Part shown: positions 2,874-22,309 of the stretch, piece by piece
Layout: the number at the start of each line of letters is the position of its first letter
How positions within the stretch are numbered: the first letter of the stretch is position 1
Assembly (NCBI GenBank): GCA_001792115.1
Contig: MGFX01000001.1
Coordinates: forward strand, 5,847 to 69,846
DNA from: Candidatus Woesebacteria bacterium RBG_16_42_24
Lineage (GTDB): Bacteria; Patescibacteriota; Microgenomatia; UBA8517
DNA: 64,000 nt
Direction: 5' to 3'
The notes under the pieces: model-generated
Told to the model about the DNA's origin: nothing
The model's database searches: none
What the model saw: the letters and a program-made list of their open reading frames with translations, nothing else
Position numbers and translations under genes: made by a program

Positions 2874-2888
2874 TAGATTACAAAGTTA

Positions 2889-5913: not shown

Positions 5914-5966
5914 AATTGTAGGTTACCAGAAAATTAGGATATCAGGAATAGAGACTAGAATATCAG

Positions 5967-6470: not shown

Positions 6471-6641
6471 TACGGCCCCCTCAATTTTCCCAACTTGATT
6501 ATTCCCCTCTTTAAATGCAATTATCGGTCCTAACGCATCTTTTTCTTGTTCCAATATCTCCCTGTCCCGCGGAGGGAAAATCGCGAGGGCGCTTATAACC
6601 CCAATCAAATAGCCAATCGTAAATAAAGCAAAAAAAACCAT
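6423..6641 (-). CDS. Small membrane protein, hypothetical
   Basis: 72-aa ORF with one TM helix (VFFALFTIGYLIGVISALAIF). The overlapping + ORF 6074..6448 is antisense to the four-helix-bundle gene. Confidence 0.3.
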   Translation of the reverse strand: MVFFALFTIGYLIGVISALAIFPPRDREILEQEKDALGPIIAFKEGNNQVGKIEGAVGETKTEDIRLAGYQS

Positions 6642-6824
6642 AAAGCTATCCTAGGGCAGCAAAAACTCAAATTATTTAACTTAAGAAGGCAGATTCTGTC
6701 CTAACACTTTATTAAACCGTGAAGCAATATCTGTCAACCAATCGTAGTATATCAAATTATATCTTAGATGTACAAATATTTCTCCCCCTCACAACGATAC
6801 GGGATCGTCAAATCAATTCTAGGC

Positions 6825-7076
6825 TTAAGTCAGCTTTAGAAGTAAAAAATAGACGAGTATGGAGATTATAAATATTGCAAGCGTAACCCCCGTCCCAGTC
6901 CAAAAGAGCGTATTGTTTCTGGTTAAAACCTTATCCCTTAGTCCATCCTTTGCCAAAGCACTATCATATTTCAAAGAAGACGGGGACGAGCGATCGGGGA
7001 CCTTTGGAGGCTTACTCCTGACTTTCTCTATTTCAAGCGGTGCATTAAGGGGAATATTGGGTACAACTGGCGGCAT
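6825..7076 (-). CDS. Small hypothetical protein with a C-terminal TM helix
   Basis: 83-aa ORF, co-oriented with neighbours. The competing + ORF 6859..7083 looks less protein-like. Confidence 0.25.
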   Translation of the reverse strand: MPPVVPNIPLNAPLEIEKVRSKPPKVPDRSSPSSLKYDSALAKDGLRDKVLTRNNTLFWTGTGVTLAIFIISILVYFLLLKLT

Positions 7077-7088
7077 AGCTTAATGACA

Positions 7089-7514
7089 TTAACCTTGCTG
7101 CTCTTCAACTTTGGGTATTTCGTCCCGAGTATAACCTGCCAAAATTTCCTTAACCATATTGACTACTTGCTTGGGTTCAAATTCGCTCTTGACTATATAT
7201 TTAACCGCTCCTTTAGTCATAGCATTTTCAGCGTCTTTTTGCCCAGCCAAGTTTGTGAGTATCACGACGGGCAGACTCTTGGTTTCAGGATCGGTTTTGA
7301 GTTTGGTCAATACTTCAAAACCGTTCATTTTGGGCATCATAATGTCCAAAAGAATAAGATTGGGACGGCCGCTTCGAACCTTAGCCAAACCATCCTCTCC
7401 ATTATCGGCAGTGTCTACTTCGTAGCCCTCAAAAGAGAAAATCTTTTGATACATCCTACTCATTAAGGGGTCGTCTTCTATTATTAATACCTTAGCCATG
7501 AATGTGTTTTTCAA
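7089..7514 (-). CDS. Single-domain response regulator (CheY-like receiver)
   Basis: KVLIIEDDPLMSRMYQKIF..LILLDIMMPKMNGFEVL..VVILTNLAGQKD: phospho-acceptor Asp and receiver fold motifs. Confidence 0.85.
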   Translation of the reverse strand: MKNTFMAKVLIIEDDPLMSRMYQKIFSFEGYEVDTADNGEDGLAKVRSGRPNLILLDIMMPKMNGFEVLTKLKTDPETKSLPVVILTNLAGQKDAENAMTKGAVKYIVKSEFEPKQVVNMVKEILAGYTRDEIPKVEEQQG

Positions 7515-7860
7515 TCTCCTCTATGAGCTTTTCGGGCGGGTTATTGACCTTAACCAAATATCCATTTGCACCGAGCTCTATGGCTTTTTTGTAAGATTCA
7601 GTGTCGCTTAGATTGGTGAGCATTATGACCTCGCAGTCCTTGGTTTTCGGATCGCCCTTAAGCTCCTTAAGAACCACAAAACCGTCCATTTCCGGCATCA
7701 TGATGTCACAAAGGATTAAGTCGGGCTTTGACTCTTTGGCTTTTTCAAGGCCTTCCTTGCCGCTCCCGGCCATATCTACTTCGTATTTGCCTAGCGCGAA
7801 GAGTCTAGCGTAAAACCTGAGAACGTAGGGGTCGTCTTCAATAATTAGAATCCTCGACAT
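7492..7860 (-). CDS. Single-domain response regulator (CheY-like receiver)
   Basis: ILIIEDDPYVLRFYARLF..LILCDIMMPEMDGFVVL..VIMLTNLSDTES. Confidence 0.85.
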   Translation of the reverse strand: MSRILIIEDDPYVLRFYARLFALGKYEVDMAGSGKEGLEKAKESKPDLILCDIMMPEMDGFVVLKELKGDPKTKDCEVIMLTNLSDTESYKKAIELGANGYLVKVNNPPEKLIEEIEKHIHG

Positions 7861-7883
7861 TTTTTATATTTTAATTGCCAACC

Positions 7884-9770
7884 CTAATCTTTTGCAATAG
7901 GGAGTGTGAAATAAAAATTTGAACCCTTATCCTCTACGCTTTCTTCAAGTCCAATCGTCCCTCCCATCCCCACGACCATGAGCTTACTGATATAAAGACC
8001 TAGGCCGGTTCCCTTAGTGGTATCTCGAGTATAAAGACTCTCCCCCGCCTGCTGAAATTTTCTAAATAGAAGGGTTTGATTCTTAATGGAAATTCCCCTC
8101 CCGGTATCGATCACATTAATTTTAAGTTGGCTATCTTTTTCGACAAGGTTAATGGTTACACTTCCCTTTTCGGTGTACTTTATCCCATTTCCGATTAGGT
8201 TTATAAGCACCTCTTTGACCTTCTCGCTATCAGCGGCTACTAAAGGAGGTTTTTTCTTTGGCTCGAGAAACTTGAGCTCAAGTTTCTTTTGCTCTGCCGA
8301 GGAAACAAGCTCTTCCAAAACAGTCTTAATTGTCCCAGCAACATCGACTTTTTCTTTCTTAAATTCTATCCTCCCCTGCTCGAGTCGCGAGAGGTTCAAG
8401 AAATCGTTGACTATGTCAATCAAACGAATGCTTGAGGCGTGGATATCGTCTATTATATTTACGAATTCTGGGTCTTTGACTTTCTTGATAAAGTAGTCTC
8501 TGATAAGAGCCGTATTACCCCTAATGGCAGTTAGGGGCGTCCTAAGCTCGTGGCTGGCAATTGAAAAGAATTCGTCTTTGGAGCGCTCCAAGACCTTGGC
8601 CTCGGTTACGTCTCCAACGAGGATAATCGCCCCAACTATACTTCCGTTTGCCAAAGTTACCGGAACTACGAATAGCTCAAGAAACTTAGCCCCCCAGGAA
8701 AGTGCTCCAATAAAGACCGATTTTTGCTCTTGAGAAATTACCTTTTTAAAGTTTCCTCTCAAGTCAAAGCTTTCGCCCAAAAGACCCTGGAGGGTGTCGA
8801 GTGTCCAGCCTTCTTTTGGTGCTTTCCCAAAAATTTCTGTCAGTAATTTATTGGTGAGAACTACATTGCCACCAACGTCGGTTAGTATAAAACCTCGAGG
8901 AAGGCTCTCGATTGAGGCCAAAAGCTTGGCTTTCTCCTCGGCCAGCTCCTTGGTTCGCTCGGCGACTTCTTTCTCAATCACAAGTTTTGCTTCTTTATCG
9001 ACTGTTGCGTCCCTGAATACCTTAACGGCTCCTATTAACTTACCCCCAGAGATAAGGGGGGCTGTAATTGACACAATTGGGAATTTCCTGCCGGAAGCCG
9101 TCAGATAGTAGTGGTTGTCCTCAAGGTTTGTAATAATCGGCTTCTTTGTTTCTACTACCTGGACAAATGAACGTTCACCAATGGGTACTTCTTGGTCTCC
9201 CTTTAGTGTCTTAACTAACTCCGACCAGCTTTTGCCAATAGCCACCTGCCCCTTAAGTTCTAGAAGCTCCTCGGCTATGGGATTTAGCATGGTGACGCGC
9301 TTTTGGATATCAACAACCAAGAGCCCCTCTCCCATAGAAGAAACAATAAGCTGAATTCTGTCGCGCTCAGATTTAAGTGCTTGCTCGACCCCGCGTAGTC
9401 TCTCCCCGGCATACTTTCCCTGCAAAAGTCTCCCTTGGGCTTCTCTGAGCTTTCCTACAAATATTCCAATAAGTATTAATCCTATGTTGGGTACAATATT
9501 TGGCAAGAGAAATTCGCTTAGGCTCGTCCCTTCAACCGCATTTAGCAAAAGAAAATTTATTGGAAAGACAATTATCCCCCCGAATAACCCTCCCCAGCTG
9601 CCAAAAAGGTAGCCCGCCGAGATCGGAATGAGGCCGGAGAAAAGGAAGACTCCCGTTCCTACCCTGGCAAAAAACAAGAAGAAAAGTAGTAAAAAAACTC
9701 CCGCCAAGACAAGGACAATTACTAATTTGGTTAGCAGGTTTAAGCTCTTGGGGGCAGCATTATCTTTCAT
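7884..9770 (-). CDS. Membrane sensor histidine kinase with PAS/GAF-type sensory domains
   Basis: N-terminal TM helices; H-box FFSIASHELRTPLTAIRGNTALI; HATPase_c motifs NLIGNGIKYT...DTGRGI...GTGLGLYISK. Confidence 0.85.
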   Translation of the reverse strand: MKDNAAPKSLNLLTKLVIVLVLAGVFLLLFFLFFARVGTGVFLFSGLIPISAGYLFGSWGGLFGGIIVFPINFLLLNAVEGTSLSEFLLPNIVPNIGLILIGIFVGKLREAQGRLLQGKYAGERLRGVEQALKSERDRIQLIVSSMGEGLLVVDIQKRVTMLNPIAEELLELKGQVAIGKSWSELVKTLKGDQEVPIGERSFVQVVETKKPIITNLEDNHYYLTASGRKFPIVSITAPLISGGKLIGAVKVFRDATVDKEAKLVIEKEVAERTKELAEEKAKLLASIESLPRGFILTDVGGNVVLTNKLLTEIFGKAPKEGWTLDTLQGLLGESFDLRGNFKKVISQEQKSVFIGALSWGAKFLELFVVPVTLANGSIVGAIILVGDVTEAKVLERSKDEFFSIASHELRTPLTAIRGNTALIRDYFIKKVKDPEFVNIIDDIHASSIRLIDIVNDFLNLSRLEQGRIEFKKEKVDVAGTIKTVLEELVSSAEQKKLELKFLEPKKKPPLVAADSEKVKEVLINLIGNGIKYTEKGSVTINLVEKDSQLKINVIDTGRGISIKNQTLLFRKFQQAGESLYTRDTTKGTGLGLYISKLMVVGMGGTIGLEESVEDKGSNFYFTLPIAKD

Positions 9771-11338
9771 TTGAGCTGGCGAGTAATATAATTTGATATT
9801 AAGTATGTGGGCAAGATTGAAATGACAATTAGAAGAGCAGATATCAAGAAAGTGAGTTCAATCGAACGTCCGGCGGCAGCCAGAACCGAGTAAGCGGGCT
9901 TGCCTGTAAAGATCATCCCCACCGTCACCTCGTCTATATCCTTTAAAGGCTGATATGAAGCGAAATATTGTCGATTAAGGAGCGTAGTCAAAAGGGTTTT
10001 CTTCCCTCCTTTGGCAAGAACCTCACCCAAAACCTCTTTATTTGTTTCCTTAATCCCAATTGGCCGCCCTTTCCCTGATAAATCTGTAATCGTTGCGGCA
10101 GAAAGTGTATCTCCCCCAAAAACTGCCGCCTCAAGGCCCGTTGCCTTTTTGACCCCATCCATAAAAGCATTGTCTATTGATATACCAACCAGAACCGCCC
10201 CGATGATACCCTTTTCATCCTTAATGGGTACTGCCGCTCGCAGCAAAACTTCAGGGGCAAAAGCTCCGTCCTTTGTTATTATCGAAGTGTGTTCCTCTCC
10301 CAAAAGCGACCTTTTGGCCAACGAGTCGTCCGATAAGGAATCCCCCGTTCTCTCCCTCTCCTCTCCTCGAGCGACAACCTTGCCATCTGCATCCAAAATA
10401 ATTACGGAGCTTACTTTATTATCAAGGAGCGTCTCTTCGGCAAGCCCCGCAAGCACGGCTTTATCATCTGCCGCAATTGCGCTACCCGATAGTTGGTTTT
10501 GTGATAGTGTCAGGGCAATCGATTTTGCCTCGGAGGCTTTGGCGTCAAGAGCAAAGGATAAAATAGAGGCGTCTGTTTCGAGCCCGGATAGGGTTTCGTC
10601 CTGCATATTTTTTAGAAGTAAGAAGGTAAAAGAAACCGCGGTCAAGAGAAAAATGGCAAGTATCGTGCTCGTGAGGATAATAAAAAGCTGGGTATTTATG
10701 CGCTTAAGTAAGTAAGAAAATGCCCACCCAAAAAGGATAACAAAGGCAAAAGCCGCTATTAAGTGCTCTATTATCCAAAGTATCCCGAATGGTGCAACGA
10801 TTTCATAAATGTCGATGTTTGAAGTCCCCACAAAAAGGCCGCGCAGGGCAAGTAACTCATAAATAGCCAAGACGAAAAATCCTAGGCTGACCCTTTTTAA
10901 ATGGTGCTCCAAACCAATTGCTACTTTTCTTAAATAAAGCCAGCCGACGCCTGCCGCAAGAACCGGCTGGGCCAAAGAAGCTATCGGCAAAAACCAGAGA
11001 GATTTTGCCTCTTTGGCTCCTTTCGGGGCTAGTTGGGTATCCTCTACCAGAAGACCTATGGCAACAAGTATATAGCCCAATGTCCTCAAGAAGGTTACGA
11101 GAACGGCATTGAGATCACTCGAAAGTACAGAGCTTTCGAGGAGGGTCGCCTCGAGTTGGGTGGCGTGGAGTAAGAAAGAAAGAGATAGGAGCAAAAATCC
11201 TGCCACCTTGAGGCCATCTTTCAGATTTTTCTTTGGCCGCCAGACGTCAAAATAGAGCCAAAAAATAGAAAACAGCGAGAGTGCCCCAAACGCATTTAGG
11301 GCAAAGTGAAAATTTTCAAAAATAAAAGGCTTCCACAT
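9767..11338 (-). CDS. 7TM membrane sensor-domain protein (no kinase output), translationally coupled to the histidine kinase
   Basis: About seven N-terminal TM helices, then a soluble domain with a terminal TM (LTFLISALLIVISILPTYLI). The stop overlaps the HK start (ATGA). Confidence 0.55.
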   Translation of the reverse strand: MWKPFIFENFHFALNAFGALSLFSIFWLYFDVWRPKKNLKDGLKVAGFLLLSLSFLLHATQLEATLLESSVLSSDLNAVLVTFLRTLGYILVAIGLLVEDTQLAPKGAKEAKSLWFLPIASLAQPVLAAGVGWLYLRKVAIGLEHHLKRVSLGFFVLAIYELLALRGLFVGTSNIDIYEIVAPFGILWIIEHLIAAFAFVILFGWAFSYLLKRINTQLFIILTSTILAIFLLTAVSFTFLLLKNMQDETLSGLETDASILSFALDAKASEAKSIALTLSQNQLSGSAIAADDKAVLAGLAEETLLDNKVSSVIILDADGKVVARGEERERTGDSLSDDSLAKRSLLGEEHTSIITKDGAFAPEVLLRAAVPIKDEKGIIGAVLVGISIDNAFMDGVKKATGLEAAVFGGDTLSAATITDLSGKGRPIGIKETNKEVLGEVLAKGGKKTLLTTLLNRQYFASYQPLKDIDEVTVGMIFTGKPAYSVLAAAGRSIELTFLISALLIVISILPTYLISNYITRQLK

Positions 11339-11388
11339 GGTGTTAACTTAAAACTCAAATGTCAAAACTCAAAAGTATATCTAAAAAC

Positions 11389-11790
11389 TCAAAACCTTCT
11401 GTTTTTTAAAGTTATAATGCTCGATCCGAGCATCTTTGAAATCTCGTCAACTTCTCTTAATAGAGAATCGACTTTTACTTTGTCAAGGGAAGTTGTATCA
11501 CGAAGGAGATTCAACCAATAATTAGTTTCGTTGGCCGATTTTAAAGCTATCTCGTAGAACTTTATGAAATCCTTTCGAGAACTCGATGCCTTTGCCTCAA
11601 TTACGTTTGCACCGATTGAAGTAGCACATCTTAAAAGTTGATCTGAAATAATCCTATTAGATCTTTTAGTGGGCAGGGAATCAATAAAAGTGATTATATT
11701 TATTGAAAACTGGTAGCTACGGTGTCTTAAATCAGTTTTAAGATTTGAGTTCAAATTTTGAACTTTGAGTTTTGAGTTTTGAGATTCCAT
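11389..11790 (-). CDS. Four-helix-bundle protein (23S rRNA IVS protein family), copy 2. The true start is probably downstream of the repeat-encoded N-terminus.
   Basis: ..LLRCATSIGANVIEAKASSSRKDFIKFYEIALKSANETNYWLNLL.. typical of TIGR02436. The N-terminal MESQNSKLKVQNLNSNLKT is encoded by (TTTGAGTTTTGAG)n repeats. Flanked by inverted arrays: AAAACTCAAA x3 at 11340-11388 and TTTGAGTTTT x3 at 11745-11790. Confidence 0.7.
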   Translation of the reverse strand: MESQNSKLKVQNLNSNLKTDLRHRSYQFSINIITFIDSLPTKRSNRIISDQLLRCATSIGANVIEAKASSSRKDFIKFYEIALKSANETNYWLNLLRDTTSLDKVKVDSLLREVDEISKMLGSSIITLKNRRF

Positions 11791-11794
11791 ATAT

Positions 11795-13987
11795 TCAGTC
11801 TAGCAAATTATCGACCAACTCGTCTTTAGTTAAAAATCCAACCGCAACCTTTTGAACCACCCCTTTTCTATCGAGAAAAACGTGGCTCGGGAAATGTCTG
11901 ATTCCCAAATCCTGAATCAAAAGCCCGTCAGGGTCGGCCACAATATTTAGCTTGTAACCTCCCCTTTTCTTAAATGTTTCTATCTTACTTCTCCCCTCTT
12001 GTTCGGCTACAGCATAGACATTAACACTCTCATAATCTTGGGAAAATGCTTCAAGTGCTCCAATCTGATCTGAAGTTGTAGGCACCCACGTTGAAACAAA
12101 ACTTATGACCGTGGGTTTGCCTAAGATTGAAATATTAGAAACTGTCGTCTCTTGTGTTTCTAGAACAAAATCGGGTAAGACACTCCCTACAGCTTTATTA
12201 TCACCCAAAAGTTCTGTAGTTAGCTGGCTCGTCTCAAACTCGTCAACCCTACTTCTGAAATCTGGTAAACCAATAAATAATCCGCCCAGGGAAATTCCCA
12301 AGCTTTTTTCCAGAACGAAATTTTGATTCACTGGAGTTGGCTTATTAAGCTCAAAGATACTGCTTCTTACACCCTTAAATCCCGAGGCGCTTACGTCTAG
12401 GTAATATTTGCCAGAAGGCAAAATGAGTTTGTAGGCGCCGTCGGCGTCAGTCTTTTGGGGATTTTCCTGACCAAAAGCTTCCCCATCCCAAAGTAAAAAC
12501 TTACCGAGAGTCGGCTCATATATAAATACCGAAACTACTGCCTCAACTTGGTAATCACCTGAAGCCATAACTTTCCCGGCAGGTAGAGAAATGATAGTTG
12601 CCAGTTTTTCTTCGGTAATATTTTGCGCTCCATCTACCGACTTTGTGGTGAGGAAAAAAGTTCCCTCTTTGGCAAAGCTTAGTACCCCTTTCCAAAATCC
12701 GGATTCTACATTCTTAACCATTGAAAATAGCTGCGAATCAGAAAATAAATCAAGAGAAACGGGCCCCCCGGAGGCGGAAAGGGTAACAGAAGTATCCAGG
12801 CCCGTTATGGTTTTAATGACCCCGGAAGAATCGGGAGTCAGAATCATCGGGCCAAGCGAAAAAAGGGCACCGCCGACTTGCGGCGGAAGTCTATCTATAA
12901 TTAGGGTGTATTCTTTGGAGGTAACTTTATTGCCGCTGGGGTCCGTCGCCCTTACTTTAATTTTGTAATTACCGTCGTCGATAATTTCCGGTGTAAACTC
13001 AAAGGTTGTTGATTTTGCTCCGATTGCCCCAAAATCGTCAACTGGAAGCCAGTTTCTTCCACCATCGATAGAATATTCAACTTGAGTTACCCCAACGTCA
13101 TCGCTAGCCTTACCGCTGATTGTGGGAGACTGGCTAAATACTCCCGACAAATCGGTCGTTATAGAAACTGCAGGCAGGCTTGTGTCTGTAGCAGTTTTTG
13201 TTACCGTAGTTGTGGTCGTGGTTGTGGTGGTAACTGTAGTCGAGGCTTTTGATGATACAAAAGTATTATCATTTGTTTCCGTCGAATTACCATCTGCATC
13301 CGCGCTTTGAATACTATAATGGTATGTTGTGTTTGAAGAAAGACCTGTCACCTCAACGCTGTGTGAGGTAACGAGAGTTGAATCACTTTTAGTCGAACCG
13401 TAGCTTGCAGTTGTTCCATAATTAACGACTGAAGTTGCAGCCTCATCGGTAGTCCAGGTTATTTTAACCGACGTTTGTGATACATCGGTAATTGTAAGGC
13501 TGGAAATTGTTGGGGGGTTAACATCGGCAGGAGTAGAAGATATTGCAACAGAAAAGCTTCCTGTACATGTTGTAGGGTTGCTTCCGTCAGAAGAATCTGA
13601 AGCTTGAACAGTCCAGGAAGCAGCAGCAACAGCACTACTCCCCGTGGATACGCTCACATTAAAATCTTTAGTCGAGCTTCCTGGAAAATTACCGGAGGTA
13701 AAGCGAATTACAGTTCCTGAATCAATGGTTGCGGTCATACCATCGGCAGATCCATCAGTTATAGTAAAATTTGATGAAGGTGCTGTGAACTTTAGCCAGA
13801 CAATTGCATTGGAGTCGTTATTGTTTAAAGTAAACGTCAGGTTGGGCGAGGCATTTATTAATACCGTCGTAGGATCAACTTCTCCATCGCAAGATGAAAT
13901 TGCAGCTTTTGATACTTTAGAAGCGAAATTAAAAATAACCAAGACAAGGACAAGTAATAAGCACGCGAATAACCTCAACTTGGGCAT
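11795..13987 (-). CDS. Secreted multidomain protein: signal peptide, fibronectin-III-like domain, poly-Thr linker, Ig-like/CarboxypepD-like domains, and a C-terminal TlpA/redoxin-like domain that has lost both CXXC cysteines
   Basis: N-terminal signal MPKLRLFACLLLVLVLVIF. FN3-like PPTISSLTITDVSQTSVKITWTTDEAATSVVNYGTT...TTYHYSIQSADADGN. TTTTTTTTTVTKT linker. C-terminal GKPTVISFVSTWVPTTSDQ aligns with the TlpA motif GKPVLLNFWATWCPPCR, with Cys replaced by Val and Thr. Confidence 0.7.
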   Translation of the reverse strand: MPKLRLFACLLLVLVLVIFNFASKVSKAAISSCDGEVDPTTVLINASPNLTFTLNNNDSNAIVWLKFTAPSSNFTITDGSADGMTATIDSGTVIRFTSGNFPGSSTKDFNVSVSTGSSAVAAASWTVQASDSSDGSNPTTCTGSFSVAISSTPADVNPPTISSLTITDVSQTSVKITWTTDEAATSVVNYGTTASYGSTKSDSTLVTSHSVEVTGLSSNTTYHYSIQSADADGNSTETNDNTFVSSKASTTVTTTTTTTTTVTKTATDTSLPAVSITTDLSGVFSQSPTISGKASDDVGVTQVEYSIDGGRNWLPVDDFGAIGAKSTTFEFTPEIIDDGNYKIKVRATDPSGNKVTSKEYTLIIDRLPPQVGGALFSLGPMILTPDSSGVIKTITGLDTSVTLSASGGPVSLDLFSDSQLFSMVKNVESGFWKGVLSFAKEGTFFLTTKSVDGAQNITEEKLATIISLPAGKVMASGDYQVEAVVSVFIYEPTLGKFLLWDGEAFGQENPQKTDADGAYKLILPSGKYYLDVSASGFKGVRSSIFELNKPTPVNQNFVLEKSLGISLGGLFIGLPDFRSRVDEFETSQLTTELLGDNKAVGSVLPDFVLETQETTVSNISILGKPTVISFVSTWVPTTSDQIGALEAFSQDYESVNVYAVAEQEGRSKIETFKKRGGYKLNIVADPDGLLIQDLGIRHFPSHVFLDRKGVVQKVAVGFLTKDELVDNLLD

Positions 13988-14586
13988 TAAGATAATAATA
14001 CACCGCTACCTTCCCTTGTTTCTAGGACGAAGCTATACGAAAACCACCAGTAAATAAACAGCCACCCTAAAACTGCCAATGTAGAGCCGTAATCGTGGAA
14101 AATTATTGCTACGTTTTGGCCAAAATAGAAAGCAATAATGACAACAAACGCAATTCTGCCGAGGTTAACTAAAAAAGTTCCCAAAAAACCAATAAGCCAG
14201 GCTTTTACTTTTGACAAATTTGTGTATCTGTCGCCCTGCAACCCTATCCAGGAGGTTAGTACAAAAAACAAAAGGCTCTGCCAACCGACACAATTCCAAG
14301 CAATTTCAATTAGAAATGGTTGCTCCTTACCAATTGCAAGATACTCCCCTACCACTGCCGGCTGAAAACCGAAGGGATACAGAATCACCCCAACCATCCT
14401 AATTTCCCAGGGAACAACATAATTTTGGATAAATTTATAAGCATCAAGATTCATTACAACTCTTGTTAAAATGTCATTAAATGTCGTCACAAAAGGCATA
14501 AACATCAAAACAAAAACCAAGATCAAAAATATATATATAAATGTCTTTTTTTGGAAAATAAATTTTTTACTTGAGACTATAGTCAT
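13987..14586 (-). CDS. Minimal exosortase/archaeosortase-family protein (core domain, ~6 TM)
   Basis: 199-aa polytopic membrane protein with a conserved Cys in AWNCVGWQSL (compare exosortase ACSGxRSL) and an N-x-x-R-I motif (VNLGRIAFV). Overlaps upstream and downstream genes by 1-4 nt. Confidence 0.5.
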   Translation of the reverse strand: MTIVSSKKFIFQKKTFIYIFLILVFVLMFMPFVTTFNDILTRVVMNLDAYKFIQNYVVPWEIRMVGVILYPFGFQPAVVGEYLAIGKEQPFLIEIAWNCVGWQSLLFFVLTSWIGLQGDRYTNLSKVKAWLIGFLGTFLVNLGRIAFVVIIAFYFGQNVAIIFHDYGSTLAVLGWLFIYWWFSYSFVLETREGSGVLLS

Positions 14587-15353
14587 TCTTTTATAATGCT
14601 GAGATTATTGACTTTCGGATTCACCAAAATTTGAGAATTTACAACTATCGGTCTGCTTTCCGGATTGATTGTGTTATTTAGTTGTCCGTTCAAATATATA
14701 TTAATTAACATGGGTTCTGATAGAAAATCCCACTGAATCTCAAGATTATAACTTTTCCCAAAATAATCTTCGCCAAGGTTGCCATTAGAATCATTTGCAA
14801 CGTGTCCTCCGATATCGTTGTAAAAATCACACGTTATTTCATTGCCCGTTCCTGCTATAATGAGTGCGTTTTTCTGGTCAGTACCGTTAAAGTTAGCAAC
14901 AAGTAGTGTTTCTTCTTCATTCTCTCCAATCCAATCAGGAACAAAACTAAAAGAAATCTTACCCTTCTGAATATCCAGATTCCCTTTGTCATACGGCGTG
15001 AGTTTAGATAAATCACTGGGGACAAAAAACTGGTAATTGGGATTAGGGATAGGGCCTGCGGCTGGAGTCTCAACTTTACTTGTCGGAGTGGGAGGAATAG
15101 AATCCTTTTCTTGTTTATCTTGCAAGGCTATTTCGGTATCCTCAAAATCCCTACTATCCAGTCCAGTTGTATCACCTTCCTCCACACCTTGTCGAACATT
15201 AGCTTCTTCTTCAACTTCTCCTAATACTTCTGGTGCTTCTCGACTGTCTATTTCTTCTTTTCCTTCTTCCTTAAAAGTTAAAATCAGAACAAACAATATT
15301 GTTAGCCCCAAAACTAGAAAAATCCAGCGTCTCTTATTTAATCTTAGAAACAT
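14583..15353 (-). CDS. Membrane-anchored hypothetical protein (N-terminal TM, acidic linker, beta-rich C-terminal domain)
   Basis: 256-aa ORF starting 2 nt after the giant gene stop. The giant gene's terminal AGGAGGG provides its RBS. The N-terminal helix is WIFLVLGLTILFVLILTF. Confidence 0.6.
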   Translation of the reverse strand: MFLRLNKRRWIFLVLGLTILFVLILTFKEEGKEEIDSREAPEVLGEVEEEANVRQGVEEGDTTGLDSRDFEDTEIALQDKQEKDSIPPTPTSKVETPAAGPIPNPNYQFFVPSDLSKLTPYDKGNLDIQKGKISFSFVPDWIGENEEETLLVANFNGTDQKNALIIAGTGNEITCDFYNDIGGHVANDSNGNLGEDYFGKSYNLEIQWDFLSEPMLINIYLNGQLNNTINPESRPIVVNSQILVNPKVNNLSIIKE

Positions 15354-15354
15354 A

Positions 15355-18300
15355 TTACCCTCCTTTTTTCTTCTTTTTATTTAAAAACGATAAATATTTT
15401 GAAATAACAGGCAATGCCAACAAAAGAATCAGCGTTTTCTCGGGTACTACGGCAAATTCAAAATTAGTCCCTTCCCTCAATACCACGCCTATTTGTGAAC
15501 TTCCCGCACCACTTAAGGGACCGGAAATCTGCCCCAAATGATCTGCGCTACCGCTCCATCCCCAATCACTTTCACTCCCCCAGAAAATAGTTGTCGCGTC
15601 AGTTGATTTTAGATATGCCTTCTCATTAGTATCCTTGATTACGCTCGCGTAAAGATCTGAATTTGACGAATCGTAAGTGATTGTAGCCGAGGTAATATTT
15701 GTTTGGCTTGTCCACGGATCTGGCTCATCCGTCCAAGTAGGAAGGCAGTCCGCCGTGTCACAATCCGCAAAATAAACAGGGGGCTGGCTGGATTCCAAAG
15801 CATCATAATAAACAAGCTTGCAGTTCGTCGAGGATGGACAAGCAAGAGCAGATCTGGTCGGTGGATTTTCCAAATCAATAACGCTTCCAGAGGCACAAGC
15901 CGCACTATCGCAGTCGAAAAAATATTGATCTTCAGGGGAGGCTGTATTTCCTACATAAACTCCCTTACAATCATTTGCTCCATTACTACAATCAAGATCA
16001 ACGCCAAATGTAGTTAAACCTCCCGCAGTATCATCAATTTTGGTTATGGTATAATTGGCAGACGTGCAAGTTGCATCTCCGCAATCTACAAAATTAAATT
16101 CAAGCTGGCTTCCGTCCGCATAGATTAATTTGCAGTCAGTTGCCCCCGGAGTACAATCAATTGCGTTGGGAACATTAACTGAGGTTCCTCCAACATCCGT
16201 ATCGATATCAAGCTCGGTTCTGGAAGCACAAGTCGTAGAGGCGGTGCAGTCAATCAATGTAAGATCTCCCTCAACTGCGTCATGGTAGAGTATTTTGCAA
16301 TCATCTGCCGCAGGGCACCAAATAGAGTTTTTTGCATTTGAATTTGTTGTATTAATATTTAAAGAAATAGCAGTTAAAGCATCTCTCGTCGAACAGTTCG
16401 CATTTGAGCAGTCAGCAAACCATAAATCGTCAGTATCGTCTTCAAAAAAAACAACTTTGCAGTCAGTATCCCCCATACAATATAAAGAAGTGTTAGGCTT
16501 AGAAGTACTACCTCCCAAATCTCCATTGATATCCCCCTGGCTCGGAGCAGAACAAGTTTCATCATTACAATCTATAAGACTCACATCAGGACTATTTCCT
16601 CCTAAAAGATCCCCGTGTGCGATCTTACAATTGTTAGAAGTTACGCAAAATAAGGCTGGTGAAGGGGCATTAGTTGCGCTTCCTGTATCGGAATCTATGA
16701 CCCTTGGAGTACCGGAGCCAAAAGTCGAACAGTTTTCATCATCGCAGTCGACAAACACAAGATCAGGCCCAGCAGTTTCTAGGTTATCCACATAAACCAC
16801 TTTACAATTAGCCGGATCAGAAGTTGGACACCAAATATCCATTTCTGTATCTTGTTCGTCTCCGGATGAACCTGTGTCTGAGTCTATTAAAAACTCTGCA
16901 ATGTCTGCGGTACAACAGGAATAAAGTCTTGTATTTTGGTTAGTCGAAGTGTCAACGCTTAACGCCCAAATATTTGTACCGTCAGTAGTTACCGAGTAAA
17001 TAGTGTCTGTAACTGAACCAATGGTTTGATTATTCCTTCTCCATTCATCTCTCGAAGCATCATACTTGGCAAATGAAAGGTCTGTTCCGTCCTGAAACAC
17101 AACGGCAGCACTGGTTGCATCAAGTCCAACCAAGACCGGCCTATCTCCCGAAGTTAAACCAGCCCCTTGTGTTCCAAAGGTTACATTCCCAGTAACAACT
17201 GAGGTTGTGTTTCCGCTGCAAGACCCATCTAGACCCGCAATCTCAAAAGCGTTTATCTCAGCATCTCCACCGGTTGTATCCGAATAGGCGATGAGAACGC
17301 TAGTATCTGAAAACTGGGCAACTGAAGTCATAAACGTATTTCCAATAGCCCCAGCCTCTATGCTGGTCTGGCAAAGGGTTCCCTGTGCATCAGAACTTGC
17401 AGTATCAATTCGACGCCCTTCTGACCTATCTGCTCCATCATCTATCCACCAAACATGGATTATATTGTTGGAAACAGCTATTGAGGGATTATAATTATCT
17501 GTATCTCCGTCATCCACAGTAACCGCCGGATCCCAAGACAGCCCGTCTGAAGATTTCTTAAAAAAGATTCTTCCCCCCGTTGAGGCAGTACACGTTACTG
17601 CGTCGCAGTTATAAAATGCGTACCAGTTTCCATTTACATAGGCTACTTTCCTTTGCAGCCCGCCGTACTGAACTTCCCCTTCCTCTATTCCTCCAGAAAC
17701 TATTACCGAAGGATCGATTGAAATTGGGAAAACTCGCTCTTTCGCCGAAAGCCATGAGCCAAAATTTTGGCCAAAACTTTTTATAAGTCTATAGCCTATT
17801 TTGTCTTTCTCTAAACTAAAATCAATATCGTAGCTCACCTCGCCCATTGCATCTTTGGCAAAGGGTTGGGAAAACTTAAACAATTCCTCCCCTTCTTTAC
17901 TATAAAATCCAAAAGCTTCTGAATTTGGCGATACTATTTTTACGTCTGTGGTTTTCACAGATTGTATTATCGAAGCAGATGAGGAAAGTGAAGAGGAATC
18001 CTTTAATATAAATTCTTCAATCAATACATTACCTGCAATAGAATATTTTAAATCAACACCCTCAATTACTTCCTCATAAACAACTTCTTTATTTGAATAT
18101 ATTTTTGATTCCGAGGGAAAAGCTTTCTTGCCACCAATAGATAAAGTCTCAAATTCTACTTCACGACCATCGGCCTTAATTCTTACTCTGGGCTCTTTAT
18201 GGAATATAAACTCTATCTGTTTACCGCTCTTGGCGGTTTTAACAATCGCTCTTGGCGTGTCAATCTGGCGTGTAGAAGCATTTTTTAAAATTGTCTCTTT

Positions 18301-21195
18301 ATTGGAAGGATTTTTTGCCTCTGTAACTTCGTCGGAATGTGAAGCACTCAATAGATCCTGGGCTGTTCTAAGGTTTGGTTCTGAGGCGTAAGCAAGGTTG
18401 GATACTGGAATAAAGGGAGAAATAGCGGCCAAAATTGAACTCAGTGACAAAAGTAGGGATAAAGCAAAGTTCCCAAGTTTTCTTTTATTTCTCGGCAAAA
18501 TTCTGAAGTTGTCAAAGCGAGAGTTGGCAGTAGCCAGGGATAGATAAGGGTTTAGGGAGTTAGGGTTTAGCCTGCCTGCCGGCAAGGCAGGGGTATTGGC
18601 ATTAGGTTTTAGACTAAACCCTAGACCCCAGTGCCTAGCACCTAGTGTCTGCAAAGCAGGTGCCCTTCCGGGCAAAATCCCTGATATGAATCTGTAGAAT
18701 CTGCCCCTGGTAAAGATGTCTGTGATACGTCCTGTCTTGGGGGTTCTAAACCAAGGTCCTTCGCTTTTTTCCAGGAAACCTTTTAAGGAGGCGTAGGCTT
18801 GGAAGGGAACGAGAATGTAGGATAATGCCACAAATGAGGCAAGACCTGCATAGTCTTTTTCTTCCGACTCCTCAAGAAATAGTCCCACGGCATTCATTAG
18901 AGGTAGGGCCAGTAAGTTGGTTAAGACCAGACTCCAGCCCCAGAGCTCTGTCCAGAAGGGCAGGTGGGCTCTAAAGACGGTTTCAGAGACAAGCCAGGAG
19001 AGGGTTCCCACCAGGAAGAAGAAGGCCTGGAGGTAGTAAGGGGAAAGGTAAAGGAATTCGAGCTTTTCACTAAAAGATAGAGGGGAAGGAATCCAGCTCT
19101 TTGACGATGGAGGATGGGGGGTAGAAGATAGTGGTTGAGGATTGAGGTTAGAAGATTGACTTTCTACCTTCAAACTTCTACCTTCTACCCCCACATTCAA
19201 TCCTCTACCTTCTACCGTCGAATCTTCCCAGTGTCCAAACATCAGTCTCACAAACATCCTTTTAATGTTGTTTGAGTGTCCTTCTGCCCATCTCATTCTT
19301 TGCCTGACTAGTCTTTTAATGGTGGAGACACACTCGGCAGGGGCTTGGATGTAAGGGGTATAGACCACTTTGTAGCCAGCTTCGTAGAGTTTTAGGGTCA
19401 GTTCAAAGTCCTCGGTGATTGAAGTTTCCCAGCCTACTTCTTCTAAGACATCTCTTCTGATCATATAGACCGATCCTGAAATCTGTTTAAGGCCTGAATA
19501 GATTTCAGTTCCTGAACGCTCAATGACGTATGAACCGGCATACTCACTCCTTACTCCCCTGGTTATCCAGTTCTCGGACTTATTTAAGACGTGCCACTGG
19601 TAACCTTGCACCGCAGCTATGCGCTGCCCGTGATCCGTAATTTGTAATTCGTCATTCGCAGTTTTATTCGGTTTACTATTTACGGATGACTGTTTACTTT
19701 TGGCGAAGTCTAACGAGCCTGCAGTTACCTGGAAGTACTTAAGGAATAGTGTCAGGGTGTCAGGATACGGTACAAAGTCTGCGTCAAAGACAGAAACGAA
19801 TTCTGCCCTGGGGTCTGTATGGATTAGAGCCTCCCTTAATGCCCCACCTTTAAACCCCGAGCGGGAGGTCCGATGCAGGTGCTTAACTATTACTCCCGGG
19901 GCTACCTCTACCGAGCTTAACGTCCAGCCCTCCCCCCCTCTGAATTTGGAATTTGGAATTTGGAATTTTCCAAGATAATCAGAGATTATCTTGGATGTCC
20001 CATCTGTCGAGTCGTCGCAGAGAATTACCTCATACTCTCCTTCATAGTCAAAGCTGGTTGAGGCGTTGATTAGTCTTTCAACTACATTCTTCTCGTTATA
20101 AAGGGGTATATGGATGGAGATAAAGGGGTGTCTAGTTAGTCTTACATGCTCAAGGTTTGCTTCCAGTCCTCCGGCTTTTGTCAAATTAGCTTGTTTCTTG
20201 TCGTTTGCCTTCCTGCCACCCAGACCCAAAAGCCAAGTCAATAGACTTTTTCCTCTGGCTTCAATCCCAATTTCACCTTCCCCTTTTCCTTCTTGGCTGA
20301 ATGACAAGACTAGTGCCAAAGTTAGATAGTATTTAAGAGAGTAGAGGAAGAAAACTGAACCTATCAAAAGAGCAACCGTGGCAAAAAAAAGTCCAGCGCT
20401 ACCCATACCTGCTTTTTCGGCAGTTGTTACCACATACCCAAAGAACCCAGTTAAGAAGATTGTTGCCCCAAAAGAAAGAGAAAACGCAGTCAATATTCTG
20501 ATTACTTTCTTGCGAGTTTCGTGGGAAAGTGCAAAAAACTGCCCTACTCTCCCTAAAACGGCCGCGATTGTCCTTATCTGTGGAGTGATTTGGCCTTGAG
20601 CGAATAAGAATCTTTTTTCAAAAGTAGAAAGGTCGCTCCTTCTAAGTATGTTCTGCACCCCATGATGGCTAAGGATAGGGTGAACCCCGACCTTGGGAAG
20701 ATTTTGAACTATTTTTCTAACGCCGTACTTAGGATATTTAGAAACTAGAGACTTAACGGCCTCTTCGTATAGCTGGGGAGCCTGTCTAAAATACCTTTTA
20801 ACCTGCGGAATTTGATCGCTAACGGCCATTATCCTTTTATCCGGCGCCAGTTGATACCTTTTGATCCACTTATAAATAGTGTTTCGAGAAACTTCGTATT
20901 CTTTGGCAAGCGAAGATATATCTTTTTCTTTAGCTAAAGCAGCCTCAACCATCCTGAATCTCTCGAGAGAAGAGAGTTTTCTAAACACAATTTTCTTTGG
21001 GGTTTGAGATTTTCGAGGTCGGCCTCCGATCTTAAAACTTAATCCATTCTCTCCATACCTTCTATATCTATTCAGCCATCTATAAAAAATCGTGCGTGAG
21101 ATTTGATACTTTCCACAAATAGAAGATACGCTCTCACCTTCAAGAGCTCTTTTAATAAGCTCAATTCTTTGCTTAGCTGAATATTTAGGCTGCAT
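15355..21195 (-). CDS. Giant 1946-aa fusion protein: transposase-type HTH domains, TM, processive family-2 glycosyltransferase (DxD, QRMRW) with post-catalytic TM bundle, signal-anchor, extracellular Asp-box (BNR) region, seven ~45-aa Cys-rich repeats, and a C-terminal PEP-CTERM-like sorting tail (VVPEK-TLILLLALPVISKYLSFL-NKKKKKGG)
   Basis: HTH: SVSSICGKYQISRTIFYRWLNRY and ISSLAKEYEVSRNTIYKWIKRYQ. GT2: ILCDDSTDGT, VFDADFVP, RLVRQRMRWAEGH. Asp-box SSDGLSW. Repeats of the form C..NCK[VLI][VI]Y....[FL].DC....C seven times. Tail compared with the PEP-CTERM consensus VPEPSTLALLGLGLL..RRRK. Confidence 0.8.
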   Translation of the reverse strand: MQPKYSAKQRIELIKRALEGESVSSICGKYQISRTIFYRWLNRYRRYGENGLSFKIGGRPRKSQTPKKIVFRKLSSLERFRMVEAALAKEKDISSLAKEYEVSRNTIYKWIKRYQLAPDKRIMAVSDQIPQVKRYFRQAPQLYEEAVKSLVSKYPKYGVRKIVQNLPKVGVHPILSHHGVQNILRRSDLSTFEKRFLFAQGQITPQIRTIAAVLGRVGQFFALSHETRKKVIRILTAFSLSFGATIFLTGFFGYVVTTAEKAGMGSAGLFFATVALLIGSVFFLYSLKYYLTLALVLSFSQEGKGEGEIGIEARGKSLLTWLLGLGGRKANDKKQANLTKAGGLEANLEHVRLTRHPFISIHIPLYNEKNVVERLINASTSFDYEGEYEVILCDDSTDGTSKIISDYLGKFQIPNSKFRGGEGWTLSSVEVAPGVIVKHLHRTSRSGFKGGALREALIHTDPRAEFVSVFDADFVPYPDTLTLFLKYFQVTAGSLDFAKSKQSSVNSKPNKTANDELQITDHGQRIAAVQGYQWHVLNKSENWITRGVRSEYAGSYVIERSGTEIYSGLKQISGSVYMIRRDVLEEVGWETSITEDFELTLKLYEAGYKVVYTPYIQAPAECVSTIKRLVRQRMRWAEGHSNNIKRMFVRLMFGHWEDSTVEGRGLNVGVEGRSLKVESQSSNLNPQPLSSTPHPPSSKSWIPSPLSFSEKLEFLYLSPYYLQAFFFLVGTLSWLVSETVFRAHLPFWTELWGWSLVLTNLLALPLMNAVGLFLEESEEKDYAGLASFVALSYILVPFQAYASLKGFLEKSEGPWFRTPKTGRITDIFTRGRFYRFISGILPGRAPALQTLGARHWGLGFSLKPNANTPALPAGRLNPNSLNPYLSLATANSRFDNFRILPRNKRKLGNFALSLLLSLSSILAAISPFIPVSNLAYASEPNLRTAQDLLSASHSDEVTEAKNPSNKETILKNASTRQIDTPRAIVKTAKSGKQIEFIFHKEPRVRIKADGREVEFETLSIGGKKAFPSESKIYSNKEVVYEEVIEGVDLKYSIAGNVLIEEFILKDSSSLSSSASIIQSVKTTDVKIVSPNSEAFGFYSKEGEELFKFSQPFAKDAMGEVSYDIDFSLEKDKIGYRLIKSFGQNFGSWLSAKERVFPISIDPSVIVSGGIEEGEVQYGGLQRKVAYVNGNWYAFYNCDAVTCTASTGGRIFFKKSSDGLSWDPAVTVDDGDTDNYNPSIAVSNNIIHVWWIDDGADRSEGRRIDTASSDAQGTLCQTSIEAGAIGNTFMTSVAQFSDTSVLIAYSDTTGGDAEINAFEIAGLDGSCSGNTTSVVTGNVTFGTQGAGLTSGDRPVLVGLDATSAAVVFQDGTDLSFAKYDASRDEWRRNNQTIGSVTDTIYSVTTDGTNIWALSVDTSTNQNTRLYSCCTADIAEFLIDSDTGSSGDEQDTEMDIWCPTSDPANCKVVYVDNLETAGPDLVFVDCDDENCSTFGSGTPRVIDSDTGSATNAPSPALFCVTSNNCKIAHGDLLGGNSPDVSLIDCNDETCSAPSQGDINGDLGGSTSKPNTSLYCMGDTDCKVVFFEDDTDDLWFADCSNANCSTRDALTAISLNINTTNSNAKNSIWCPAADDCKILYHDAVEGDLTLIDCTASTTCASRTELDIDTDVGGTSVNVPNAIDCTPGATDCKLIYADGSQLEFNFVDCGDATCTSANYTITKIDDTAGGLTTFGVDLDCSNGANDCKGVYVGNTASPEDQYFFDCDSAACASGSVIDLENPPTRSALACPSSTNCKLVYYDALESSQPPVYFADCDTADCLPTWTDEPDPWTSQTNITSATITYDSSNSDLYASVIKDTNEKAYLKSTDATTIFWGSESDWGWSGSADHLGQISGPLSGAGSSQIGVVLREGTNFEFAVVPEKTLILLLALPVISKYLSFLNKKKKKGG
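19621..19700. repeat. In-frame 75-80 bp MITE-like insertion inside the GT2-coding region of the giant gene. It is made of left-end-like and right-end-like sequences of the 21205-21665 four-helix-bundle cassette, and is absent from the paralog at 1121-1180.
   Basis: ccgtaatttgtaattcgtcattcgca resembles cgtaatccgtaatctgtcattcgtca (21214-21239). tcggtttactatttacggatgactg resembles tcggattacgatttacggatgacgg (21638-21662). It adds ~20 aa (..SKPNKTANDELQITDHGQR..) without breaking the frame. Confidence 0.55.
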
Positions 21196-21204: not shown

Positions 21205-21665
21205 TTTAAGTTCGTAATCCGTAATCTGTCATTCGTCACCCGGATACAAGCTCAGATTACGAATCGTCATCTTTTTTTCTTTTCTCTGTTGAACGTATCA
21301 ACCCACTTATTAACTGAAATCCTTGATTTATTTTGTCTATTAAAGATTGAAATTCATCACCTGTAAGGAAATTTAGGTCTTTAGCTAATATAAGAAAATT
21401 TTGTACCTCTGCGTTTGAGCCACGAGCCTGATAATAAAAACGTATCTTATCAGCGAAATGATATCTCCCCCAGCCTTCCGCTATGTTGGCAGTCACAGAA
21501 GATGCCGCCCTTCGAAGCTGGTCAATAAGACCAAATCTTTCACTATTAGGGAATTTCCTCGTAAGTCTATAAATGGCGACAGCCACATCGTGGTTAACTC
21601 TCCAAGCATCAAGATCAGAAAAATGCATGTTTTTCTTCGGATTACGATTTACGGATGACGGATTA
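21205..21665. mobile_element. Small cassette carrying four-helix-bundle gene copy 3, bounded by related ~26-bp terminal sequences. Candidate non-autonomous IVS-like mobile element.
   Basis: Left end TTCGTAATCCGTAATCTGTCATTCGTCACC (21209-21240) plus internal inverted copy GATTACGAATCGTCATC. Right end GGATTACGATTTACGGATGACGG (21640-21662). A deletion derivative of both ends lies at 19621-19700. Confidence 0.5.
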
Positions 21666-21670
21666 TTCAT
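21257..21670 (-). CDS. Four-helix-bundle protein (23S rRNA IVS protein family), copy 3
   Basis: ..WRVNHDVAVAIYRLTRKFPNSERFGLIDQLRRAASSVTANIAEGWGRYHFADKIRFYYQARGSNAEVQNFLILAKDL.. matches the TIGR02436-type family. Confidence 0.75.
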   Translation of the reverse strand: MNNPSSVNRNPKKNMHFSDLDAWRVNHDVAVAIYRLTRKFPNSERFGLIDQLRRAASSVTANIAEGWGRYHFADKIRFYYQARGSNAEVQNFLILAKDLNFLTGDEFQSLIDKINQGFQLISGLIRSTEKRKKDDDS

Positions 21671-22295: not shown

Positions 22296-22309
22296 CTACG
22301 GGCCCCGCT

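Follow-up and report, generated by a model that had tools for sequence, protein, structure and literature searches.

An exosortase-family enzyme encoded beside a tail-bearing polysaccharide synthase, its probable dedicated substrate, in Patescibacteria and Chloroflexota

We analysed a 64,000-nucleotide (nt) stretch of contig MGFX01000001.1 from Candidatus Woesebacteria bacterium RBG_16_42_24 (hereafter the window), in which an exosortase/archaeosortase-family enzyme is encoded near a giant polysaccharide synthase that ends in a tail resembling a sorting signal. Candidatus Woesebacteria belong to the Microgenomates group of Patescibacteria, bacteria with reduced genomes and a reliance on cell-surface contacts, whose surface biology is almost unknown. 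Genes were assigned by model searches with Pfam and NCBIfam (release 20). Nine co-directional open reading frames (ORFs) occupy the minus strand at positions 7089..21195, with a spacing that ranges from 4-nt overlaps to 51-nt gaps, and all of them were found at the coordinates and in the order given by an earlier reading of the DNA (the original prediction). They encode, in the direction of transcription, the giant synthase of 1946 amino acids (aa; 15355..21195), in which Pfam detects HTH_28/HTH_23 and a family 2 glycosyltransferase (GT2); an accessory hypothetical protein of 256 aa without a family (14583..15353); the 199-aa exosortase/archaeosortase-family protein (13987..14586), recognised by TIGR04178; a secreted 730-aa protein with FN3, Big and CarboxypepD_reg domains (Pfam) and a redoxin domain (TlpA/AhpC-like) devoid of cysteines (11795..13987); a 133-aa four-helix-bundle protein (11389..11790; TIGR02436); a 523-aa sensor protein with multiple transmembrane (TM) helices and a dCache_3 domain (9767..11338; Pfam); a 628-aa PAS-HisKA-HATPase histidine kinase (7884..9770; Pfam/NCBIfam); and two receiver-only response regulators (7492..7860 and 7089..7514; Pfam Response_reg), the last of which is probably 136 aa long, the gene call placing its start at an internal ATG. 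The nine genes are compatible with the single operon originally proposed; a scan of the locus for consensus promoters and terminators gave counts close to those of shuffled controls and hence no boundary information, so it is from the tight spacing that we infer an operon.

A homologue search paired the 199-aa protein, at 100% identity, with A2V56_01930, a hypothetical protein from Candidatus Woesebacteria bacterium RBG_19FT_COMBO_42_9. The record of the window protein itself reads 'hypothetical protein', and some of its homologues are already annotated as 'exosortase/archaeosortase family protein'. The protein contains the motifs AWNCVGWQSL and VNLGRIA highlighted in the original prediction, and its proposed identity as an exosortase/archaeosortase core is borne out by TIGR04178, with 39.7 bits against a cutoff of 23; the second model suggested as a check, PF09721, gave 20.3 bits, under its threshold of 25.7, with a match in the C-terminal half only (model positions 133–250 of 254). 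A Chloroflexota relative passes the PF09721 threshold (30.1 bits), and five relatives of other clades score 32–41 bits with TIGR04178, so that each clade tested lies above the cutoff of that model. Three residues, Cys99 (in WNCxGWQS), Arg144 (NLxRI) and His164 (FHDYGS), are invariant in a 28-sequence alignment; in 50 sequences from all clades beside tail-bearing genes, representing two phyla, Cys99 is kept in 49 and Arg144 and His164 in all 50. A Cys/Arg/His catalytic triad has been proposed for exosortases and archaeosortases (Haft preprint 10.1101/2023.06.07.544157), and Cys99, Arg144 and His164 are the predicted catalytic residues here. The AlphaFold2 (AF2) model of the enzyme is a helical membrane protein (predicted local distance difference test, pLDDT, 83), and a count of charged residues suggests four spans, which would put Cys99 and His164 close to the outer leaflet. 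Searches of the PDB returned no relative of the enzyme by sequence or by fold.

None of the named subfamily cutoffs was reached by the 199-aa protein, the best score being 18.9 with ArtC (cutoff 100), and its relatives approached none of those for XrtG, XrtX, XrtR, ArtC, ArtF and CrtC, their top scores being at most 32.9 for XrtG (cutoff 102.75), at most 31.8 for XrtX (170) and at most 33 for ArtC (100). Chloroflexota members give weak XrtG matches of 19–33 bits; the same model gave no match to the 199-aa protein at E ≤ 0.01. The enzyme had originally been called minimal, and we considered whether it is exceptionally so; we rejected this description, as the XrtG, XrtX, XrtR and ArtF models are themselves 160–187 positions long, which makes a size of 160–200 aa unexceptional. 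Searches detected 417 homologues, the best 120 of which are 60–100% identical to the 199-aa protein and mostly 180–215 aa long, with Woese-, Davies- and Chisholmbacteria among the named sources. A scan of one genome per GTDB species yielded 261 enzyme loci, 80 of which were retained. By record title, these 80 come mainly from Microgenomates-group lineages, with the addition of Nealsonbacteria and Chloroflexota (Anaerolineae, Dehalococcoidia) at 40–47% identity; the titles 'uncultured Gammaproteobacteria' and 'Bathyarchaeia' of some metagenome-assembled genomes look unreliable and were not used for the distribution.

The first 190 residues of the giant protein (20626..21195, minus strand) form a cytoplasmic module of transposase-type, DNA-binding helix-turn-helix (HTH) domains without DDE (HTH_28, 69.7 bits; HTH_23, HTH_Tnp_1 and HTH_32), and a processive GT2 catalytic domain of the BcsA/PgaC type lies at about aa 355–725 (19021..20133, minus strand). 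Pfam resolves two HTH modules within aa 1–120 and the GT2 domain at aa 359–722, including the QRMRW motif, in agreement with the original prediction, and the motifs FDADF (DxD), TED and QRMRW align to those of E. coli BcsA (7lby). WFRTPK matches the gating-loop consensus FxVTxK, the role of which is known from BcsA (PMC8892547), and is found in 118 of 119 homologues. The giant gave partial matches to the synthase equivalog models CelA (68.8 versus a cutoff of 699.1) and PgaC (64.8 versus 422.3), both well short of the cutoff. The IS481, IS3 and IS630 transposase models align to its HTH region solely through their DNA-binding N-termini, with 84 bits for the IS481 model NF033577 (cutoff 224) over profile positions 2–111 of 284 only, and Pfam gave no match to an rve/DDE catalytic domain. 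An insertion-sequence (IS) insertion or assembly artefact was considered as the origin of this region and rejected, since no DDE domain accompanies the region, which is in frame and shared by more than 100 homologues of the giant.

Hydropathy and flanking charge order the protein as follows: the cytoplasmic HTH module, two TM helices, the cytoplasmic GT2 domain, TM and interface helices, the gating loop, a variable basic linker, a TM helix at aa 911–929, an ectodomain at aa 930–1916 (15448..18408, minus strand), a tail helix at aa 1921–1939 and a KKKKK cluster on the inside. Five Lys/Arg residues stand on the N-terminal side of the helix at aa 911–929 and five to six follow the tail helix, and the linker between the synthase core and the last two helices measures 50–322 aa across homologues. 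The ectodomain is all-beta and probably made of tandem beta-propellers: its AF2 model (mean pLDDT 69) contains strands throughout, and its best Foldseek matches are GH74 xyloglucanase, sialidases and DDB1-type propellers, at low template-modelling scores of 0.2–0.3. Sequence searches of the PDB with the HTH region and the ectodomain returned nothing, and the ectodomain is also without a Pfam match. The cysteine repeats noted in the original prediction are present, 28 cysteines at aa 1456–1817 (15745..16830, minus strand) forming 14 close pairs with alternating spacing, at about four cysteines per repeat of approximately 55 aa. HTH-GT2 proteins of 1070–3140 aa account for nearly all of the giant's 120 best homologues; their ectodomains, of approximately 180 to 2080 aa, contain unrelated Pfam domains, for example DUF2341, Kelch, Laminin_G_3 and MG2. 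Because these ectodomains vary in both length and domain content, the conserved parts of the protein are the synthase module and the tail, and not the passenger between them.

The tail (aa 1911–1946; 15358..15465, minus strand) is tripartite and reads as originally reported, with the segment NFEFAVVPEK, a helix (TLILLLALPVISKYLSFL) and the terminal NKKKKKGG; in the AF2 model, a helix spans aa 1920–1945 and begins directly after VPE. The orthologue from Daviesbacteria (locus L001) ends in NFEFGTLPEK-TLVLVLLVPFLPGLL-KKLRESKRL and that from Chisholmbacteria (L003) in NFEFATVPEK-SLILLVLAPFLPKAL-KGWRKEKNAH, and both are encoded directly upstream of their exosortase genes. Beyond these orthologues, in which the original prediction had proposed to look for the tail, it recurs in 100 of the 120 best homologues of the giant as [TV][VI]PE[NK], a helix with PF[IL]P and a Lys/Arg cluster, with the PE motif located 22–75 residues from the C-terminus. 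The tail is no chance feature, since orthologues and most paralogues share it. Across the 100 tails, the proline is present in all and the glutamate in 99; the preceding residue is V, I or L in 95, and the one before it is T in 47. The residue after PE is N in 38 cases, K in 22, I in 10 and R in 7; hence, there is no Pro-Glu-Pro signature. The tail helix is Leu-rich, with prolines at +11 (67%) and +14 (72%), and the Lys/Arg cluster at +21 to +24 is mixed rather than mostly Arg. The likeness to PEP-CTERM signals claimed in the original prediction thus extends to the tripartite design and not to the model, as TIGR02595 (PEP-CTERM) gave no match to the window tail even at E ≤ 10; when the tails of ten relatives were compared with it, one reached 15.5 bits (cutoff 16). 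In eight synthases with a PEIP-type signature (P0143, P0154, P0156, P0163, P0164, P0175, P0200 and P0212), a cytoplasmic extension of 30–40 aa, ending in LD(E/K/R/D)LPV, comes after the basic cluster and leaves the tail short of the extreme C-terminus.

An exhaustive search with the tail profile against 1.84 billion representative proteins, which superseded an earlier word-indexed search with the tail alignment (230 candidates, 1 match), gave 217 matches at E ≤ 0.001, nearly all of them C-terminal, within a few residues of the protein end. Full-length matches are GT2 synthases and short ones are fragments. Short or GT2-less tail ORFs were considered as non-synthase carriers and rejected as fragments arising from frameshifts, runs of N and contig ends. 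The sole remaining non-GT2 candidate, at locus L068, is a protein of 411 aa, encoded beside the enzyme, whose N-terminal segment is hydrophobic and signal-like and which bears a VVVPE-helix-RR tail; L068 aside, no other tail- or signal-bearing candidate was found in the window, the 80 loci or the global profile search. The synthase carriers have no N-terminal signal peptide, and begin instead with a cytoplasmic HTH or receiver (REC) domain, their ectodomain being exported by an internal signal-anchor helix.

We then examined the pairing of tail and enzyme by running a hidden Markov model of the tail, together with a simple pattern, on the six-frame ORFs of the loci. A tail-bearing ORF ends at most 3 kb upstream of the exosortase gene, on the same strand, in 49 of the 80 loci, and at most 150 nt upstream in 27, with stop and start codons often overlapping. 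The tail pattern is present in only 64 of the 1734 ORFs (≥100 aa) of those loci, many loci without a tail ORF have less than 1.5 kb of upstream sequence, and tandem cassettes occur at L020, L021 and L085. Dedicated systems, as defined by Haft, draw enzyme and target from consecutive genes, in place of many unrelated targets per genome; the 49 loci show this adjacency, and their carriers share the synthase module and not the ectodomain. The accessory 256-aa protein consists of an N-terminal membrane anchor, an acidic linker and a domain of approximately 140 aa, and is optional in the cassette. Its homologues are found at the same position in L001/L014, L021, L027 and L028, and the gap between giant and exosortase genes is 700–1100 nt in nine loci; the accessory protein and three homologues gave no credible Pfam match at E ≤ 1 and no NCBIfam family.

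The start of the window cuts into a second HTH-GT2 giant (1..2877, minus strand; Pfam), of which the N-terminal 959 aa are included. This second cassette lies approximately 12 kb from the first, mostly beyond the window start, and could be completed on locus L087 (MGFZ01000023.1), where the second giant (2196 aa in full) is found at 2363..8953 and its exosortase, exo2, at 1701..2315 (minus strand), with a four-helix-bundle gene next. Exo2 has 204 aa, is 44% identical to the first exosortase (exo1) and scores 39.1 bits with TIGR04178, and the tail of the second giant is of a different subtype (...SWLIIQVSGLQVPEN-LLIFLPLVLFIP...). Across loci, type-A tails ([FY][ES]F-x3-PE) stand beside exo1-like enzymes in 18 of 18 cases and type-B tails (SWL..-SSL-x2-PE) beside exo2-like enzymes in 5 of 5, and the remaining tail forms pair with enzymes approximately 40% identical to both exo1 and exo2. 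This tracking of enzyme clade by tail subtype is the pattern that would be expected for specificity between enzyme and signal, and is supportive of it, not decisive.

In Chloroflexota, the pairing persists despite a different N-terminal module. Loci L038, L045, L058, L081 and L082 encode a NarL-type response regulator, followed by a synthase with an N-terminal REC domain; an MshEN domain (cyclic-di-GMP-binding type) is also present in the L058 synthase (5047..9975) and in a related protein, P0292. The exosortase gene lies downstream of the synthase in four of these five loci and upstream in L045. As the Chloroflexota synthases have REC instead of the HTH pair, the N-terminal cytoplasmic module is interchangeable, and it may serve as a regulatory input to the synthase. 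One of these proteins, the L038 synthase (3689..6916; 1075 aa), carries three RNA polymerase alpha-CTD (helix-hairpin-helix) repeats at aa 768–829 (117.6 bits), which are odd for a region between core and tail that is predicted, by analogy with the window protein, to be extracytoplasmic.

We favour, with moderate confidence, the reading that the locus is a dedicated one-to-one exosortase system that processes the adjacent polysaccharide synthase as its substrate. According to this model, the giant would be a BcsA-like processive GT2 synthase/translocase with a cytoplasmic N-terminal regulatory module, in which the signal-anchor helix at aa 911–929 and the basic linker would export the lineage-variable beta-propeller ectodomain. 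The tail would tie the ectodomain back to the membrane, with VPE-K at the outer face, the proline helix in between and the Lys/Arg cluster inside. The exosortase would most likely recognise the tail within the membrane and cut at or near VPE, removing helix and basic cluster, and the new C-terminus might be transferred to an envelope acceptor (lipid, wall or glycan), by analogy with archaeosortase A, which transfers its target to lipid (Haft preprint 10.1101/2023.06.07.544157). The outcome would be a mature synthase, with its ectodomain released at one end or else attached covalently to the envelope beside the pore of its own glycan. The persistence of the pairing in Chloroflexota, across the exchange of the N-terminal module, counts in favour of this model.

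Several observations weigh against it. No NCBIfam sorting-signal model matches the window tail, and a polytopic carrier without a signal peptide is unlike classical cargo. Essentially confined to one synthase family, the tail could be a structural helix; it stands where BcsB has its tail anchor, or BcsA its TM8, and BcsA-BcsB provides a precedent for a tail-anchored co-subunit beside a synthase without a protease (PMC8892547). Inheritance of whole cassettes would produce the same co-variation of tail and enzyme, which is why we do not take that pattern as decisive; 11 loci have neither GT2 nor tail beside the enzyme although their upstream sequence exceeds 1.5 kb; the placement of Cys99 on the outer rather than the inner face is tentative, being favoured by a charge count; and cleavage of the tail by the enzyme is itself something that we infer. 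This last point, and a tail that is restricted to a single protein family, keep alive an alternative that we regard as unlikely, in which the tail is a structural anchor, a BcsB-like or BcsA-TM8-like helix that packs on the synthase core and is never removed, and the exosortase would be a non-proteolytic membrane partner in assembly or in lipid or glycan handling. The order of elements in the giant (QRMRW, two TM helices, an interface-like helix, WFRTPK, a TM helix, the ectodomain and a final TM helix) indeed maps onto BcsA/BcsB, and BcsB, which binds carbohydrate in the periplasm, is a tail-anchored partner of BcsA and in some cases fused to it (PMC8892547); the near-confinement of the tail to this family and the lack of a signal peptide in the carrier fit a structural anchor as well. 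We nevertheless favour processing, because the invariant Cys/Arg/His triad argues for retained catalysis, as judged from sequence conservation; because the signature sits exactly at the outer boundary of the helix, with a basic cluster at the terminus, as in all known sorting signals; because a linker that varies over 50–322 aa implies that the last two helices are not a rigid part of the channel; and because L068 has a carrier that is not a synthase.

It is quite unlikely, in our judgement, that the exosortase acts on some other protein and adjoins the GT2 gene through a shared exopolysaccharide pathway, so that the likeness of the tail to a sorting signal would be coincidental. Known XrtG loci of Firmicutes do pair an exosortase with two GT2 genes and a separate Firmicu-CTERM cargo (PMC12854382), the weak XrtG matches of Chloroflexota members (19–33 bits) point in that direction, and some loci have the enzyme without an adjacent synthase; however, the window, the 80 loci and the global profile search offered no other signal-bearing candidate, tail subtype tracks enzyme clade, and the tail-bearing gene borders the enzyme gene with its 3' end, its stop codon often overlapping the start codon of the latter. 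The original prediction had likened the gene set to proteobacterial EpsH/PrsK/PrsR loci for exopolysaccharide. A literal locus of this type, with an EpsH/XrtA exosortase and PrsK/PrsR controlling many PEP-CTERM proteins, is highly improbable: the genes for exosortase, GT2 and histidine kinase/response regulator do run closely spaced in one direction here, and two-component genes recur near the enzyme in L009, L013, L024 and L069, but the enzyme scores below every named exosortase subfamily cutoff, the tail is not matched by the PEP-CTERM model, no further tail ORF was found in the window (the only other known carrier in this genome, the second giant, ends just outside it) and the host is a member of Patescibacteria. 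Pfam found no sigma-54 or DNA-binding output domain in the window regulators, and the best 25 of the 80 families matched by the kinase are PnpS, WalK, PhoR and similar models, all below cutoff. With receiver-only regulators and a kinase that is not PrsK-like, the comparison is valid as gene grammar and not as homology.

The processing reading has a more specific form, which we consider rather unlikely, in which the exosortase is a transpeptidase that joins the ectodomain C-terminus, after VPE, to an envelope polymer, possibly the glycan made by the synthase itself, resulting in a self-anchoring trans-envelope synthase/adhesin. If so, paralogues would differ in surface specificity through their variable propeller ectodomains, and the system would be a main route to an attachment surface in the ultra-small episymbiotic cells of the candidate phyla radiation (CPR), controlled from the inside by HTH or REC/MshEN modules.

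Exosortases are common and almost unstudied biochemically, and the known cases concern many secreted proteins in Gram-negative bacteria or the S-layer proteins of archaea. We found nothing in the searchable literature that links exosortases to CPR/Patescibacteria, and nothing on HTH-GT2 fusions. The cognate tail and its placement on a polytopic GT2 synthase are absent from NCBIfam release 20 and from that literature, and so are the one-to-one cassettes with paralogue-specific tail subtypes and the distribution over Patescibacteria and Chloroflexota. A single, adjacent and recognisable presumed substrate would turn the cassette into a small, two-gene model in which to examine how exosortases recognise their targets and what chemistry they perform, would extend sorting signals to polytopic enzymes, and would add an uncatalogued signal and enzyme subfamily to the annotation of genes now labelled 'glycosyltransferase', 'hypothetical' or 'exosortase/archaeosortase family protein'. 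The pairing suggests that Patescibacteria and Chloroflexota process their own polysaccharide synthases by a sortase-like system, and points to a conserved multi-paralogue envelope machine in Patescibacteria. The exchange of HTH for REC/MshEN suggests a regulation of the synthase akin to that of BcsA by PilZ, through different inputs.

Among the neighbouring genes, a MerR-family regulator (3479..4129, plus strand; Pfam MerR) is divergent from the second giant, and at least eight loci have a divergently transcribed MerR gene upstream of their synthase: the second cassette, L001, L003, L065, L074, L076, L080 and L085. Small MerR genes are located at 1828..2136 in L001, 4106..4411 in L003, 5139..5456 in L074 and 3956..4291 in L076. 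The recurrence of this neighbour suggests a dedicated transcriptional regulator of the synthase. A histidine kinase and/or receiver gene follows the exosortase in L009, L013 and L024, and L069 repeats the downstream block of the window (FN3-redoxin, dCache, kinase and two receivers); the linkage to two-component genes, for which a regulatory role may be envisaged, is found in a minority of CPR loci only, whereas in Chloroflexota it is part of the synthase itself, in the form of the fused REC domain. The FN3-redoxin gene, which is directly downstream of the exosortase in L069 as well, is a lineage-specific neighbour. Much of what the original prediction said of these genes stands, including the four-helix bundle (TIGR02436), the cysteine-less TlpA domain of the FN3 protein (a redoxin domain without CxxC) and the two CheY-like regulators, each with a receiver domain only; the '7TM sensor' is a multi-TM protein, to be described more correctly by its dCache_3 domain, and Pfam found no kinase domain in it.

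Genes for four-helix-bundle proteins (TIGR02436, the 23S rRNA-intervening-sequence protein) recur in the region, at 5967..6365, 11389..11790 and 21257..21670 (minus strand) of the window and at 1251..1613 of L087, that is, after the signalling genes, in mid-operon, before the giant and after the second exosortase. Upstream of the locus, a 104-aa ORF without a family (21955..22269, minus strand) overlaps tRNA-Ala(cgc) (22234..22305, minus strand) and is probably not a gene. Elsewhere in the window, the rRNA operon (16S, tRNA-Ile, tRNA-Ala, 23S and 5S; 39394..49813, minus strand) has approximately 3.7 kb between 16S and tRNA-Ile, a gap that contains an opposite-strand ORF of 711 aa (46072..48207, plus strand) with coupling-ATPase domains of the TraG/TrwB/HerA type. 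An intein that includes a LAGLIDADG endonuclease domain interrupts an 860-aa KaiC/DnaB-like ATPase (34553..37135, minus strand). Two large ORFs are without a Pfam or NCBIfam family, one of 1234 aa (25052..28756, minus strand), which adjoins a conventional 301-aa GT2 gene (28789..29694), and one of 595 aa (4126..5913, minus strand).

Compared with known systems, the cassette resembles XrtA/EpsH-PEP-CTERM and ArtA-PGF-CTERM in its polytopic enzyme with a Cys/Arg/His triad and a TIGR04178 match, in its linkage to polysaccharide genes and in a tripartite signal composed of a Pro-Glu signature, a hydrophobic helix and a basic cluster. It differs from both in having [TV][VI]PE[NK] in place of PEP or PGF, a PF[IL]P helix, a Lys-rich cluster and an enzyme below every named subfamily cutoff, and in its multi-pass GT2 carrier without a signal peptide, its one-to-one arrangement and its hosts in Patescibacteria and Chloroflexota. 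Of the systems described in bacteria that lack an outer membrane, XrtG/Firmicu-CTERM of Firmicutes comes closest, and likewise has a small exosortase (approximately 190 aa) with GT2 neighbours (PMC12854382); its cargo, however, is a separate protein, whereas here the GT2 synthase itself bears the tail, and the giant scores 16.5 with TIGR03111, the XrtG-associated GT2 model (cutoff 364).

With BcsA-BcsB, which is a single polypeptide in some species (PMC8892547), the giant shares a processive GT2 with DxD, TED, QxxRW and gating-loop motifs, and an ectodomain, probably carbohydrate-handling, on a single C-terminal helix. In contrast to BcsA-BcsB, it has no PilZ domain, its putative regulatory module is N-terminal (two HTH domains or REC/MshEN), and its ectodomain is unrelated to BcsB and highly variable. 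To our knowledge, the BcsB anchor has no sortase-type partner. The dedicated systems described by Haft share with the cassette the consecutive genes for enzyme and target; here, by contrast, each genome has several target paralogues, each apparently with its own enzyme paralogue, and the target is an enzyme complex rather than a surface protein.

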